5,694 bases of DNA from a virus (lineage: Duplodnaviria; Heunggongvirae; Uroviricota; Caudoviricetes). Under the pieces are notes generated by a model. The model had not been told where the DNA came from, did no database searches, and was given only the letters and a program-made list of their open reading frames with translations. Both the position numbers and the translations under genes were made by a program. Location: IMG/VR virus record IMGVR_UViG_3300018485_000013, positions 1-5,694 of that record; one strand, written 5' to 3'. The first letter of the stretch is position 1, and each line of letters opens with the position of its first letter. This document shows positions 1-5,694 of the stretch, in pieces.

Positions 1-21
1 TACACGACGCTCTTCCGATCT
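1..21. other. Illumina TruSeq universal adapter 3' end (sequencing artefact, not biological sequence)
   Basis: Bases 1-21 (TACACGACGCTCTTCCGATCT) are identical to the last 21 nt of the TruSeq universal adapter as I recall it (...CTACACGACGCTCTTCCGATCT). They sit at the extreme 5' edge of the window. Confidence 0.85.
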
Positions 22-657
22 GGGATGCTGATCTGGCCCGACTTTACTGGCTGGGACACGGTGCTGAATGCCGAAGCAACGGCATATGCCACCGCCCGTG
101 CGCTTGGTCTGCGCGCCAAAATTGATGAGCAGACCGGATGGCACAAAAGCCTGTCCAACGTGGGCGTGAACGGTGTCACCGGAATTTCTGCTGATGTATT
201 CTGGGATCTGCAGGACCCGGCAACTGATGCGGGACTGCTTAACCAGAACGATGTTACCACACTTATCCGCAAAGACGGCTTTCGCTTCTGGGGTTCCCGC
301 TGTCTGAGTGATGACCCACTCTTTGCCTTTGAAAACTACACCCGCACGGCGCAGGTGCTGATGGACACGATGGCAGAAGCGCCAATGTGGGCGGTCGACA
401 AACCGCTGAATCCGTCGCTGGCCCGCGACATTATCGAAGGTATCCGCGCCAAAATGCGCAGCCTGATCAGTCAGGGCTATCTCATTGGTGGCGATTGCTG
501 GCTGGATGAGTCGGTGAACGACAAAGACACTCTGAAAGCTGGAAAACTCACCATCGACTACGACTACACACCAGTGCCGCCACTTGAAAACCTGATGCTG
601 CGTCAGCGCATCACCGATCAGTACCTGGTGAATTTCGCCAGCCAGGTCAGCGCGTAA
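1..657 (+). CDS. FI: Contractile tail sheath protein, P2 gpFI-like, C-terminal portion (5' partial, runs off the window start)
   Basis: Frame 1 is open from position 1 to the TAA at 655-657, so the first in-window ATG (25) is not the real start. The first 21 nt are adapter, so genuine coding sequence begins at about 22. The translated sequence (…[36 protein letters not shown]…) matches my recall of the P2 sheath C-terminal domain. The tail tube gene follows immediately, as in P2. Confidence 0.88.
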
Positions 658-666
658 GGGGACAAC

Positions 667-1182
667 ATGGCTTTACCACGCAAATTAAAACACCTGAACC
701 TGTTTAACGACGGGAACAACTGGCAGGGGATCGTTGAGTCGCTGACGCTGCCGAAATTCACCCGCAAATATGAGAAGTATCGCGGCGGCGGAATGCCGGG
801 AGCAGTGGATGTGGATCTGGGGCTTGATGACAGTGCGCTGGACACAGAATTTTCCATTGGTGGTACTGAACTGCTGCTGTTTAAGCAGATGGGCAAAGCC
901 ACGGTGGATGGCATCCAGTTGCGCTTTACCGGCTCTATCCAGCGTGATGATACCGGGGAAGTGCAGGCCGTGGAGCTTGTGGTGCGTGGACGTCACAAAG
1001 AAGTGGATTCCGGCGAGTGGAAGACGGGCGAAAGCAACACCACCAAAGTGACCAGTACCAACAGCTACGCGAAGCTGACTATCAATGGTGAGGTGCTCTA
1101 TGAAGTGGACCTTATCAACATGGTGGAAATTGTGGACGGTGTGGACCTGATGGAAGCGCACCGCAACGCCCTCGGCCTCTGA
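667..1182 (+). CDS. FII: Major tail tube protein, P2 gpFII-like
   Basis: 171-aa ORF beginning MALPRKLKHLNLFNDGNNWQGIVE…, which I recognise as the P2 FII tail tube family. A GGGGA Shine-Dalgarno at 658-662 lies 4 nt upstream of the ATG. It starts 9 nt after the sheath stop. Confidence 0.92.
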   Translation: MALPRKLKHLNLFNDGNNWQGIVESLTLPKFTRKYEKYRGGGMPGAVDVDLGLDDSALDTEFSIGGTELLLFKQMGKATVDGIQLRFTGSIQRDDTGEVQAVELVVRGRHKEVDSGEWKTGESNTTKVTSTNSYAKLTINGEVLYEVDLINMVEIVDGVDLMEAHRNALGL

Positions 1183-1193
1183 TGTATCTGAAC

Positions 1194-1211
1194 GGCGCGG
1201 AATGCCGCGCC
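1194..1211 (+). promoter_or_regulatory. GC-rich stem-loop in the FII-E intergenic region (possible mRNA stability element or partial attenuator)
   Basis: Seen in sequence: GGCGCGG (1194-1200) pairs with CCGCGCC (1205-1211) around a 4-nt loop AATG. There is no U-run after it (AGAACCUAAUUUACAGG), so it is not a canonical intrinsic terminator. Confidence 0.35.
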
Positions 1212-1236
1212 AGAACCTAATTTACAGGACAGCAAA

Positions 1237-1539
1237 ATGAGCGATAAGCAGACTGAAAAGACTATTCAACTGGATACCCCCATCATGCGTGGTAAAACTG
1301 AAATCACCGAAATTGTGCTGCGTAAACCGCAGTCTGGTGCGCTGCGCGGTACACGCCTGCAGGCCATTATGGATATGGATGTGAACGCGATGATGACCGT
1401 GATCCCCCGCATCTCCAGCCCGGCGCTGACTGCACAGGAAATTGCAGAGATGGACCCGGCAGATCTCACTGCCATGTCGGTTGAGGTTGTCACTTTTTTG
1501 TTGAAGAAGTCGGTGCTTGCCGGTTTACCGACAGCCTGA
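1237..1539 (+). CDS. E: Tail assembly chaperone, P2 gpE-like (zero-frame product)
   Basis: 100-aa ORF (MSDKQTEKTIQLDTPIMRGK…) in the position upstream of the tape measure gene where the lambda G/GT and P2 E/E' chaperone sits. AGGA at 1226-1229 lies 7 nt upstream of the ATG. A slippery heptamer occurs near its 3' end. Confidence 0.85.
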   Translation: MSDKQTEKTIQLDTPIMRGKTEITEIVLRKPQSGALRGTRLQAIMDMDVNAMMTVIPRISSPALTAQEIAEMDPADLTAMSVEVVTFLLKKSVLAGLPTA

Positions 1540-1673
1540 CGGTTGATGATCTGGTGGCAGATATCGCCACCATTTTTCACTGGCCGCCATCCGTTACTGA
1601 CGTTATGCCGCTGACCGAAGTGCTGGAATGGCGGTATAAAGCGATTCAGAGAAGCGGGGCCAACGATGAGTGA
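1237..1673 (+). CDS. E+E': Tail assembly chaperone frameshift fusion, P2 gpE+E'-like (-1 shift at 1494-1500)
   Basis: Hand translation of the -1 frame from 1500 gives VEEVGACRFTDSLTVDDLVADIATIFHWPPSVTDVMPLTEVLEWRYKAIQRSGANDE, then stop TGA at 1671-1673, which overlaps the tape measure ATG at 1666. The predicted fusion is about 145 aa. This architecture is conserved in the tail chaperones of long-tailed phages. Confidence 0.68.
1494..1500 (+). promoter_or_regulatory. Putative -1 programmed ribosomal frameshift slippery heptamer T_TTT_TTG
   Basis: In the E frame the codons are ac-T TTT TTG. A -1 slip keeps two U-rich codons paired and then reads GTT GAA GAA…, which stays open for 57 codons to a TGA at 1671-1673. 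A T-rich heptamer at this position is the known E/E' frameshift arrangement in P2-like phages. Confidence 0.7.
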
Positions 1674-4600
1674 TAATAACCTGCGCCTGCAGGTCATTCT
1701 TAATGCGGTTGACAAACTCACCCGCCCATTCCGTGCTGCACAGGCCAGTTCGAAAGAGCTGGCTGGCGCAATCAGAAACTCCCGTGACGCATTAAAGCAA
1801 CTCAATCAGGCGGGTAACAGCCTGGAAAAATTTCGCAAGCTGCAGGCCGATAACAAAAAGTTAGGCGACAGGCTGAACTATGCCAGACAGAAGGCAAATT
1901 TGCTTAGTTCTGAGCTGGAAGCGATGGAACAACCATCACAAAGGCATCTTGTGGCTTTAGGTCGGCAAACGCTGGCAGTCCAACGCCTGGAAGAACAACA
2001 AAAATATTTGCAGAAGCAAACGGCGCTTGTGCGTGCAGAACTGTACCGGGCGGGAATTTCTGCGAAAGATGATGCGGGAGCAACTGCCCGTTTAGCCCGT
2101 GAAACATCACGTTATAACCAGGAACTTTCGAAACAAGAGGCGCGGCTGAAGCGACTGGGGGAAGCTCAGCGCAGGATGAATGCGGCGCGTGCCAGTTATG
2201 CCCGTTCGCTGGAGGTGCGTGATCGTATTGCAGGTGCCGGAGCCACCACCACGGCTGCAGGGCTGGCAATGGGCGCACCAGTGATGGCGGCAGTAAAAAG
2301 CTATACCAGCATGGAAGATGCCATGAAAGGTGTAGCAAAGCAGGTCAATGGTCTGCGTGACGATAATGGCAACCGCACTGCACGTTTTTATGAAATGCAG
2401 GATGCCATCAAGGCTGCCAGCGAACAGTTGCCGATGGAAAACGGTGCGGTGGACTTTGCCGCACTGGTTGAAGGTGGTGCGCGCATGAACGTCGCAAACC
2501 CTGACGACAGCTGGGAAGACCAGAAACGTGACCTGCTGGCCTTCGCCAGTACGGCAGCAAAGGCGGCAACAGCCTTTGAGCTGCCAGCGGATGAACTGTC
2601 AGAAAGTCTGGGGAAAATCGCCCAGCTCTACAAAATTCCCACCCGCAATATTGAACAGCTCGGTGATGCGCTGAACTATCTGGATGATAACGCCATGTCG
2701 AAAGGGGCAGACATCATTGATGTGATGCAACGTCTGGGCGGTGTGGCTGACCGTCTGGATTATCGTAAAGCGGCGGCGCTGGGTTCCACCTTCCTGACAC
2801 TGGGCGCTGCGCCGGAGGTTGCAGCCAGTGCAGCAAACGCGATGGTGCGTGAATTGTCCATTGCCACCATGCAGAGCAAGAGTTTCTTTGAAGGAATGAA
2901 TCTGCTGAAACTCAATCCTGAAGTGATTGAAAAGCAGATGACGAAGGATGCGATGGGAACTATCCAGCGTGTGCTGGAGAAGGTGAACGCACTGCCGCAG
3001 GACAAGCGTCTGTCTGCCATGACCATGATGTTTGGTAAAGAGTTTGGCGATGACGCGGCGAAACTGGCAAACAACCTGCCGGAACTACAGCGCCAGCTAA
3101 AACTGACTGCGGGCAATGATGCGCTCGGTTCCATGCAGAAAGAATCCGACATCAACAAAGACTCACTTTCTGCTCAGTGGTTGCTGGTCAAAACCGGAGC
3201 GCAGAACACCTTCAGCAGCCTGGGCGAAACGCTGCGCCAGCCGCTGATGGATATTCTGTACACGGTGAAAAGCATCAAGGGGGCGTTGCGCCGCTGGGTG
3301 GAAGCTAACCCGGAACTGACAGGCACACTGATGAAAGTAGCGGCTGTTATGGCTGCGGTTACCGTAGGCCTCGGCACCTTAGCGGTGGCGCTGGCTGCAG
3401 TGCTGGGGCCGCTGGCAGTCATCCGTCTGGGATTCTCTGTGCTGGGTATCAAAACGTTACCTTCCGTTACGGCAGCAGTAACACGAACCAGCAGCGCGTT
3501 GTCCTGGTTAGCTGGCGCTCCACTGGCACTGCTGCGACGCGGGCTTGCTTCATCGGGCAACGCAGCGGGTTTACTTACTGCGCCGTTGTCGTCTTTGCGC
3601 CGCACGGCATCACTGACGGGAAATGTCCTGAAAACTGTAGCAGGTGCGCCGGTTGCACTTTTGCAGTCTGGATTATCCGGTTTACGTGCTGTTGCTGTGA
3701 TGTTTATGAATCCTCTGGCGGTACTGCGCGGTGGACTGGCCGCCGCAGGCACGGTGCTGCGAGTACTGGCATCTGGTCCACTGGCGATGCTGCGCGTTGC
3801 CCTGTATGCCGTATCTGGTCTGTTAGGTACTCTGCTCAGTCCGATAGGTCTTGTGGTTACTGCACTGGCGGGCGTGGCGCTGGTTGTGTGGAAATACTGG
3901 CAACCCATCACCGCATTTCTTGGTGGCGTGGTGGAAGGATTCAAAGCGGCGGCAGGTCCCGTCAGTGCAGCATTCGAACCGCTTAAGCCCGTGTTCCAGT
4001 GGATTGGCGATAAAGTACAGGCGCTGTGGGGCTGGTTTACTGATCTGCTGACGCCCATTAAGTCGACCTCTGCCGAACTGCAGAGTGCAGCGGCAATGGG
4101 GCGGAGATTCGGGGAGGCACTGGCGGAAGGGCTGAATATGGTCATGCATCCGCTGGACTCCCTGAAATCCGGCGTTTCCTGGTTGCTGGAGAAGCTCGGC
4201 ATTGTCAGTAAAGAGGCCGCAAAGGCAAAACTGCCGGAAAGCGTGACGCGTCAGCAACCTGCGACGGTGAATGCAGACGGTAAAGTGATGATTCCATCGG
4301 GTGGTTTTCCGTCATGGGGATATGGCTTTGCGGGGATGTATGACAGCGGCGGGTATATCCCGCGCGGGCAGTTTGGCATCGTCGGTGAAAACGGGCCGGA
4401 AATTGTTAACGGCCCGGCAAATGTGGCCAGCCGGAGAAATACAGCTGCACTGGCTGCCGTTGTTGCCGGAATGATGGGCGTTGCTGCCGCGCCAGCAGAG
4501 CTTCCACCGTTGCACCCTTTGGCACTTCCCGCGAAAGGTGGAGAAGCAATTGTGAGTCGCGCAGCCACTGTGCCGCTCGTTCAACGGCTTGAGGCACCGA

Positions 4601-4743
4601 CGCAGATCATCATTCAGACGCAGCCAGGACAAAGTGCGCAGGATATTGCGCGGGAGGTGGCCCGCCAGCTTGATGAACGTGAACGCAGGCTGAAGGCAAA
4701 GGCCAGGAGTAACTACAGCGATCAGGGGGGATACGACGCATGA
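1666..4743 (+). CDS. T: Tail tape measure protein, P2 gpT-like, 1025 aa
   Basis: Very large ORF directly after E/E'. It has a charged, heptad-like N-terminal region (residues about 25-180, rich in Q/R/E/L/A, consistent with coiled coil), a hydrophobic Ala/Gly/Leu/Val-rich central region with degenerate tandem repeats, and a Gly-rich C-terminal region. The first ATG after the in-frame stop at 1612 is at 1666. GGGG at 1655-1658 is a plausible Shine-Dalgarno. Confidence 0.93.
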   Translation: MSDNNLRLQVILNAVDKLTRPFRAAQASSKELAGAIRNSRDALKQLNQAGNSLEKFRKLQADNKKLGDRLNYARQKANLLSSELEAMEQPSQRHLVALGRQTLAVQRLEEQQKYLQKQTALVRAELYRAGISAKDDAGATARLARETSRYNQELSKQEARLKRLGEAQRRMNAARASYARSLEVRDRIAGAGATTTAAGLAMGAPVMAAVKSYTSMEDAMKGVAKQVNGLRDDNGNRTARFYEMQDAIKAASEQLPMENGAVDFAALVEGGARMNVANPDDSWEDQKRDLLAFASTAAKAATAFELPADELSESLGKIAQLYKIPTRNIEQLGDALNYLDDNAMSKGADIIDVMQRLGGVADRLDYRKAAALGSTFLTLGAAPEVAASAANAMVRELSIATMQSKSFFEGMNLLKLNPEVIEKQMTKDAMGTIQRVLEKVNALPQDKRLSAMTMMFGKEFGDDAAKLANNLPELQRQLKLTAGNDALGSMQKESDINKDSLSAQWLLVKTGAQNTFSSLGETLRQPLMDILYTVKSIKGALRRWVEANPELTGTLMKVAAVMAAVTVGLGTLAVALAAVLGPLAVIRLGFSVLGIKTLPSVTAAVTRTSSALSWLAGAPLALLRRGLASSGNAAGLLTAPLSSLRRTASLTGNVLKTVAGAPVALLQSGLSGLRAVAVMFMNPLAVLRGGLAAAGTVLRVLASGPLAMLRVALYAVSGLLGTLLSPIGLVVTALAGVALVVWKYWQPITAFLGGVVEGFKAAAGPVSAAFEPLKPVFQWIGDKVQALWGWFTDLLTPIKSTSAELQSAAAMGRRFGEALAEGLNMVMHPLDSLKSGVSWLLEKLGIVSKEAAKAKLPESVTRQQPATVNADGKVMIPSGGFPSWGYGFAGMYDSGGYIPRGQFGIVGENGPEIVNGPANVASRRNTAALAAVVAGMMGVAAAPAELPPLHPLALPAKGGEAIVSRAATVPLVQRLEAPTQIIIQTQPGQSAQDIAREVARQLDERERRLKAKARSNYSDQGGYDA
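3505..3890 (+). repeat. Degenerate tandem repeats of about 21-22 aa (about 63-66 nt) within the tape measure gene
   Basis: The protein shows about six consecutive units with the pattern xxPLAxLRxGLxxxGxxL: LAGAPLALLRRGLASSGNAAGLL / TAPLSSLRRTASLTGNVLKTV / AGAPVALLQSGLSGLRAVAVMFM / NPLAVLRGGLAAAGTVLRVLA / SGPLAMLRVALYAVSGLLGTLL / SPIGLVVTALAGVALVVW. The nucleotide copies are diverged (for example CCACTGGCACTGCTGCGACGCGGGCTT versus CCTCTGGCGGTACTGCGCGGTGGACTG), so the boundaries are approximate. Confidence 0.5.
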
Positions 4744-5225
4744 TGATGGTGCTGGGATTGTACGTGTTTATGCTTCGCACTGTGCCGTATCAGGAACTGC
4801 AGTATCAACGCAGCTGGCGACATGCGGCAAACAGCCGGGTAAACCGTCGTCCGTCCACGCAGTTTCTGGGACCGGAAAACGACATGCTGACGCTTTCCGG
4901 TGTTCTTATGCCGGAGATAACAGGCGGCAGGCTGTCGTTGCTGGCACTGGAGCAGATGGCAGAACAGGGGAAAGCATGGCCCCTGATTGAAGGCAGCGGC
5001 ACGATTTACGGCATGTATGTGATTGAGGGACTGAATCAGACTAAAACGGAGTTTTTCCGCGACGGTATGCCGCGCAGGATTGAGTTCACCCTTTCGCTAA
5101 AACGGGTGGATGAATCCCTGTCCGATATGTTCGGTGATCTCAGTACTCAACTGAATAATCTGCAGGACACGGCAACGTCTGTCTTAAGCGATATCAGTAA
5201 AACGGTGGGAGGGCTGCTGTCGTGA
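4740..5225 (+). CDS. U: Tail protein U, P2 gpU-like
   Basis: 161-aa ORF (MMMVLGLYVFMLRTVPYQELQYQRSWRHAANSRVNRRP…) that I recognise as the phage P2 GpU family. Its ATG overlaps the tape measure stop in ATGA (4740-4743). AGGGGGGA at 4722-4729 is a Shine-Dalgarno. Position after T matches P2 order. Confidence 0.9.
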   Translation: MMMVLGLYVFMLRTVPYQELQYQRSWRHAANSRVNRRPSTQFLGPENDMLTLSGVLMPEITGGRLSLLALEQMAEQGKAWPLIEGSGTIYGMYVIEGLNQTKTEFFRDGMPRRIEFTLSLKRVDESLSDMFGDLSTQLNNLQDTATSVLSDISKTVGGLLS

Positions 5226-5694
5226 ATTTCAGCTCTGAACTGCTTAACAAAGGCAACAAAACTCCCGCATTCAGCATCAGTATTGAGGGCAGGGATATCA
5301 CCACTGTGCTGGATAACCGCCTGATGAGTTTGACGCTGACGGATAACCGGGGCTTTGAAGCGGACCAGCTTGATCTGGAGCTGGATGACGCTGACGGAAA
5401 AATCGTGCTGCCGCGCCGTGGTGCGGTTATTACGCTGGCGCTGGGCTGGAAGGGGCAGCCGCTTTTCCCGAAAGGGGCATTCACAGTGGACGAGATTGAA
5501 CACACTGGCGCACCGGACCGCCTGACTATCCGGGCGCGAAGTGCTGATTTTCGGGAAACGCTGAATACCCGCCGTGAAAAATCGTGGCATAAGACCACCG
5601 TCGGGGAAGTGGTGAAGGAAATAGCCGCGCGGCACAAGCTGAAGATGGCACTGGGTAAAGACCTGTCGGATAAGCCCGTGGAGCATATAGACCA
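5222..5694 (+). CDS. D: Tail protein D, P2 gpD-like (late control D family), N-terminal portion (3' partial, runs off the window end)
   Basis: Frame 2 is open from the TAA at 5198-5200 to the window end. It is absent from the supplied ORF track, probably because it has no ATG start and no stop within the window. The only plausible start is GTG at 5222, overlapping the U stop in GTGA, with GGGAGGG at 5207-5213 eight nt upstream. Translation (V/M)NFSSELLNKGNKTPAFSISIEGRDITTVLDNRLMSLTLTDNRGFEADQLDLELDDADGKIVLPRRGAVITLALGWKGQPLF… matches my recall of the gpD family. Confidence 0.82.
   Translation, partial: MNFSSELLNKGNKTPAFSISIEGRDITTVLDNRLMSLTLTDNRGFEADQLDLELDDADGKIVLPRRGAVITLALGWKGQPLFPKGAFTVDEIEHTGAPDRLTIRARSADFRETLNTRREKSWHKTTVGEVVKEIAARHKLKMALGKDLSDKPVEHID

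Follow-up and report, generated by a model that had tools for sequence, protein, structure and literature searches.

Leftover Illumina TruSeq-type adapter as the probable left end of a contig with a P2-like prophage tail operon

The window studied here, a stretch of viral DNA of 5,694 nucleotides, begins with 21 bases of leftover Illumina TruSeq-type adapter, most probably at the left end of a contig. We estimate the probability of this reading, according to which bases 1–21 are a laboratory or assembly artefact lying outside any genome, at about 96%. The DNA from base 22 onward belongs to a tail operon of the P2-like (Peduoviridae-type) prophages of E. coli and has nothing unusual about it. 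The first gene in this part codes for the tail sheath protein and is present as its 3′ part, and the comparisons of sequences reported below indicate that this truncation is due to the contig ending there and not to the biology of the organism. The features of the window are collected in Table 1.

Table 1. Positions of the adapter remnant and of the tail genes in the window, with the evidence for each.
Feature	Position	Strand	Evidence
Synthetic sequence: last 21 nt of the TruSeq-type universal (P5 / Read-1 primer-site) adapter	1–21	+	Exact match; shuffles; no E. coli or phage homology
P2-like prophage tail sheath gene (gpFI type), native 3′ part, codons 180–390 and stop	22–657	+	100% identity to six assemblies (L002–L006, L009); Pfam
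Internal ATG, native Met181, false start of the open reading frame 25–657	25–27	+	Open-reading-frame list; internal Met in the reference protein
Tail tube protein (FII type), intact	667–1182	+	PF04985, E = 8.8e-60; major tail tube protein in the reference locus (L001)
Tail assembly chaperone genes E and E+E′	1237–1673 (E 1237–1539; −1 extension to 1673)	+	PF10109, PF06528
Tape measure protein, 1025 aa, intact	1666–4743	+	PF10145; exact protein on 18 public contigs
gpU-type tail protein, intact	4740–5225	+	PF06995, E = 2.9e-44
gpD-type late control / baseplate hub gene, 5′ part, cut by the right end of the window	5222–5694	+	Late control D family protein in L001; weak PF05954 match on the fragment

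Bases 1–21 read TACACGACGCTCTTCCGATCT. In an exact string comparison, they turned out to be identical at 21/21 positions to positions 38–58 of the 58-nt TruSeq universal adapter, which confirms the claim of the first-pass annotation of this DNA that they match the 3′ end of that adapter exactly. The match ends on the 3′-terminal base of the adapter, that is, on the ligation junction. The universal arm matches over 21 nt, the indexed (P7-side) adapter and the Read-2 primer over the common 12–13 nt only. Since the first 9 nt, TACACGACG, fall outside this common part, the remnant can be assigned to the universal, or Read-1-primer-site, arm. The same Read-1 primer site is carried by most ligation-type Illumina-compatible adapters, and the TruSeq kit is not the only one that would leave this 21-mer. 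It is present once in the window, on the plus strand. We calculate that chance alone would produce an exact match to a 21-mer about 3e-9 times in 2 × 5.7 kb, and 200 dinucleotide-preserving shuffles gave 0 matches with ≤3 mismatches allowed. With ≤3 mismatches, the 21-mer was not found in the homologous reference locus (L001) either. No other adapter-like stretch of ≥14 nt occurs in the window, its right end included. A 13-nt match to a Nextera adapter at 742–754 was rejected as a chance one, and it sits within sequence that is 100% identical to native genomes.

The homology of the window to native DNA has a sharp left boundary. Megablast of window bases 1–700 against 5,426 complete E. coli genomes matched 989 records. 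Each alignment listed begins at query base 22, with 11 of them at 100% identity, and the matched regions are annotated as ‘phage tail sheath protein’ and ‘phage major tail tube protein’. The whole window matched 1146 E. coli records, all alignments listed covering 22–5694, and 58 records of a phage collection, for which the alignments listed begin at base 22 as well. The identity is 97–100% to E. coli prophages and ~97% to the phage-collection records. When window bases 1–48 served as the query against E. coli (word size 11, E-value limit 10), 0 of 961 records reached 80% coverage, and the rows listed all begin at 22. The first-pass annotation had left it to alignment to find where true homology begins; in every E. 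coli and phage match listed, this is base 22.

Six independent assemblies (L002–L006 and L009) are 100.000% identical to window 22–5694 over 5673 nt, with 0 mismatches and 0 gaps, and two further contigs of the eight fetched reveal a one-base difference from it. Upstream of the junction, the six identical assemblies have native …CAGCGTGAA. All nine fetched homologous loci read …AGCCAGCGTGAA before the junction and GGGATGCTG after it, the 21-mer being replaced by …AGCCAGCGTGAA. In a longer view, …ACTTCAGCCAGCGTGAA followed by GGGATGCTGATC in the nine homologous loci stands against TACACGACGCTCTTCCGATCT followed by GGGATGCTGATC in the window. The last native base, A, differs from the last adapter base, T, and the breakpoint between bases 21 and 22 is therefore unambiguous. 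It had been considered in the first-pass annotation that homologous sheath genes might carry the same 21 nt in frame; none of the nine fetched loci does, all of them having their native sequence at this place. A junction-spanning 35-mer is absent from the viral, genome and metagenome contig collections.

The sheath coding sequence of L001 occupies 6464–7636 (390 codons), and the match of the window starts at L001 position 7001. Sheath codon 180 begins at window base 22, and the window is without the 537 nt of the gene before it, which encode the 179 N-terminal residues. What is present in place of a complete coding sequence with its native start codon is residues 180–390 of 390. Read in the sheath frame, bases 1–21 give seven sense codons, YTTLFRS, with no stop, and then pass into native G180-M181-L-I-W. 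This translation, together with base 22 being the start of codon 180, bears out the earlier statement that the sheath reading frame runs through bases 1–21. The remaining part of the protein is well recognizable, its Pfam domains passing the curated cut-offs: PF17482 (Phage_sheath_1C) is complete (78.3 bits, cut-off 26.9) and PF04984 (Phage_sheath_1) is partial, with profile positions 87–167 of 168 (56.2 bits, cut-off 31.4). The regions lost are PF22671 (Gp18_domIII_N) and the first half of PF04984. Synteny with the tube, E/E′, tape measure, U and D genes is preserved.

BLASTP of the edge translation against the full-length sheath protein starts at query residue 6, not 8, the reason being that CGA in the adapter codes for Arg, as does native codon 178. 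Judged from proteins, the boundary would thus come out two residues off; the DNA alignment places it correctly. The edge protein (YTTLFRS…) was looked up in full and is not on record. According to the first-pass annotation, any protein called from position 1 or 25 would carry spurious N-terminal residues. This is correct for a call from position 1, which has 7 false residues, and incorrect for one from position 25. The ATG at 25 is native Met181: the open reading frame 25–657 has a false start and is devoid of 180 residues of the protein, with 0 spurious residues.

The open frame through bases 1–21 and the two residues by which BLASTP extends into them (CGA = Arg178) are what could be put forward in favour of native origin, in which the 21 bases would either resemble adapter by chance or belong to a sheath gene whose 5′ region is truly variant in this strain. 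Against this stand the 21/21 identity to a synthetic oligonucleotide, ending on its last base, and the chance figures given above (~3e-9 expected, 0/200 shuffles). The 21-mer is also absent from all homologous loci, six of them 100% identical downstream, and among the matches listed in the survey described below the same 21-mer is joined to 121 unrelated inserts from unrelated phyla. The probability that the bases are native can be regarded as negligible.

The sheath gene is full-length in the six assemblies that are identical to the window over 22–5694, and the truncation is thus technical. This agrees with the first-pass annotation, which considered the truncated gene to be an assembly artefact and not a biological deletion. 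Of the 18 public contigs with the exact tape measure protein, the eight listed are all longer than the window and intact upstream, and 8/8 carry the 390-aa sheath gene. It might be argued that the source organism has a true 5′-deleted sheath gene, as in a decayed prophage, and that the contig happens to end, with adapter, where the deletion lies. E. coli commonly contains defective remnants of P2-like prophages, and the window alone cannot show the upstream sequence of the source genome. A deletion, however, would join native to native DNA, while the junction found is native to adapter. Since the eight contigs with the identical tape measure protein keep the 390-aa sheath gene and the six assemblies with full identity over 5673 nt have an undamaged upstream part, a true deletion is highly improbable.

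GTDB, with one representative genome per species and 32 million contigs, was scanned for the 21-mer. It is contained in at least 120 species-representative contigs (L011–L130) from unrelated phyla, mostly metagenome-assembled genomes. Among the matches listed, 115 of 121 occurrences lie <100 nt from an end with the 3′ end of the adapter pointing inward, 109 of 121 lie within 37 nt of the end (37 nt being the rest of the adapter length), and in 64 of 121 the stretch matching the adapter extends up to the terminal base; with long contigs having been split for storage, a few of these ‘ends’ may be piece boundaries. The retained adapter among the matches listed has a length of 21 to 58 nt with modes at 33, 35 and 58, where 21 nt is the shortest retained adapter that a 21-mer query could detect. 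Ten contigs among the matches listed have the full 58-nt adapter, and four begin with exactly this 21-mer, as the window does. The 12-mers directly after the adapter are different in 121/121 cases among the matches listed.

That the 21-mer behaves in this way in other assemblies, and that the window opens within the adapter, makes it likely that the contig ends at the window start. Alternatively, the adapter could lie in the interior of a larger contig, a chimera of two unrelated fragments connected by adapter sequence, so that the window start would not be a contig end. Internal adapter does occur, as 6 of the 121 survey occurrences among the matches listed lie >100 nt inward from the end of the piece as stored. 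The window, though, would then have to begin inside the 58-nt adapter by coincidence, and 115 of the 121 comparable cases among the matches listed are terminal, including the four that begin with exactly this 21-mer. A chimeric contig seems very unlikely on these grounds, and it leaves bases 1–21 synthetic all the same.

Moeller et al. (2024, BMC Genomics 25:1033, PMC11536531) found that adapters in MGnify genomes are concentrated at contig ends, with reverse complements at contig beginnings. In their data, reverse complements of AGATCGGAAGAG at contig beginnings adjoin the reverse-read-specific CGTCGTGTAGGGAAAGAGTGT, and the authors argued that adapter contamination breaks contigs during assembly (PMC11536531). 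The window resembles this contamination: at its start stands the reverse complement of AGATCGGAAGAG followed by CGTCGTGTA…, the 3′ end of the adapter abutting the insert. Nothing essential differs, the window keeping 21 adapter bases that are in frame with the adjoining gene and stop-free. What the first 21 bases show is a technical artefact of the everyday kind, and biologically there is nothing new in it.

As for the way in which the adapter got into the contig, Read-2 read-through is the most likely route. At the window start, the adapter is oriented with its 3′ end pointing inward, and 21 of its 58 bases are present. The reverse complement of bases 1–21 is AGATCGGAAGAGCGTCGTGTA, and this is the sequence with which the output of Read 2 past a short insert starts in the established library design. 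The reverse complement begins with AGATCGGAAGAG plus CGTCGTGTA, and according to Moeller et al. (2024, PMC11536531), the universal 12-mer is continued by CGTCGTGTAGGGAAAGAGTGT specifically in reverse reads. On this view, window base 22 would be one of the physical ends of a library fragment whose insert was too short to fill a read. Read 2, taken from the minus strand of the window, would then have continued past the insert into the adapter, giving AGATCGGAAGAGCGTCGTGTA…, and minus-strand read-through reads covering bases 1–21 would be expected to end in AGATCGGAAGAGCGTCGTGTA(GGGAAAGAGTGT). Read trimming would have missed the adapter, and the assembler would have kept the read as a terminal extension of the contig. 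The native upstream sequence, namely the 537 nt at the 5′ end of the sheath gene, …CAGCGTGAA included, would thereby have been lost. It is by chance that the seven codons of the adapter are stop-free and in frame.

The adapter could have been delivered differently, by a ligation or PCR chimera, by a partial Read-1 oligonucleotide protocol, or by failed trimming of a merged read, with the same artefact as the outcome. The 21-mer is common to many Illumina-compatible adapter and oligonucleotide designs, and the window offers no clue to the type of read. Nevertheless, read-through is the dominant source of adapter in this orientation, the last base of the adapter directly abuts the insert, and the reverse complement stands at the contig beginning as in PMC11536531; such other routes are unlikely, and Read-2 read-through is preferred. 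That 21 of the 58 bases were retained might be due to read length, partial trimming or the k-mer size of the assembler. A k-mer of 21 was considered because one that consists of adapter throughout forms a branching hub, and we make no claim for it, other contigs retaining 21 to 58. A microhomology, GATCTGG at 17–23 and again at 30–36, was considered as a mis-priming or chimera route. It was rejected because priming at 30–34 would place the junction beyond base 34 instead of at base 22, and because 7-mers repeat by chance.

One more assembly has an end close to the junction. Contig L010 (Logan SRR20082906_2274, 1–5841) begins at the ATG equivalent to window base 25, which is 3 nt from the junction. 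It comes from a different strain, with 120 mismatches over 5670 nt relative to the window, and has no adapter; the 120 differences and the missing adapter rule it out as the source of the window. One could imagine that the DNA of the sheath gene tends to fragment or break at base 22, so that physical ends recur there and the junction is more than the random end of a library fragment; this seems extremely doubtful. The proximity of 3 nt is probably a matter of ascertainment, because L010 was found by a look-up of the exact protein (the 210-aa open reading frame) starting at Met181, and no contig other than one that starts at this place could yield that protein. A break in the sheath gene is seen in 0/8 of the contigs shown for the tape measure look-up.

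The value of the finding is in data hygiene, and no biological conclusion should be drawn from the truncation. Bases 1–21 are to be trimmed, and the sheath gene is to be annotated as 5′-partial from base 22 in frame. If they are left untrimmed, a gene caller gives either a 5′-partial sheath protein starting with YTTLFRS… or a 210-aa ‘short sheath’ from the internal Met181. The prophage would then look truncated or defective, although identical strains have it intact. Spurious matches could also arise at the contaminated end, linking it to thousands of contigs of unrelated organisms that carry adapter contamination as well. Adapter remnants of this kind are the target of the UniVec/VecScreen and NCBI FCS-adaptor screens. 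An example of a trimming sequence for both mates is AGATCGGAAGAGC.

The native part of the window has the gene order of the phage P2 tail cluster, FI-FII-E-E′-T-U-D: sheath, tube, the E and E+E′ chaperones with the heptamer TTTTTTG, tape measure, gpU and gpD. It differs from that cluster in the sheath gene being without its first 179 codons. The slippery heptamer lies at 1494–1500, near the end of the gpE-type gene, and the −1 frame is open to 1673. We take it to match the known programmed −1 frameshift that gives E+E′ in phage P2. The −1 frame encodes the PF06528 (Phage_P2_GpE) segment, for which RefSeq annotates a separate 39-aa CDS. A search of Rfam returned nothing in the window at gathering thresholds. 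Among the phage records, those named ‘Klebsiella phage Kp48xx-2’ (H29–H39, OK490395 etc.; 35,561 bp, unannotated) match window 22–5694 at 96.9%, an identity similar to that of the E. coli prophages. Either the P2-like tail module is common to several genera, or these records are of Escherichia-type prophage origin.

Two minor observations concern the surroundings of the tail module. A number of the assemblies that carry it end inside gpD, as the window does: beyond the equivalent of window position 5694, L004–L009 continue for 549–613 nt and L010 for 171 nt. The recurrent contig breaks in gpD suggest a repeat common to a co-resident P2-like prophage. Furthermore, the window-identical tail module adjoins ybjL/ybjM/grxA in one assembly and smpB/bamE/recN-type genes in another (L002 11427–19303 vs. 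L003 11028–19135), and the different neighbour genes point to closely related prophages at two chromosomal sites.
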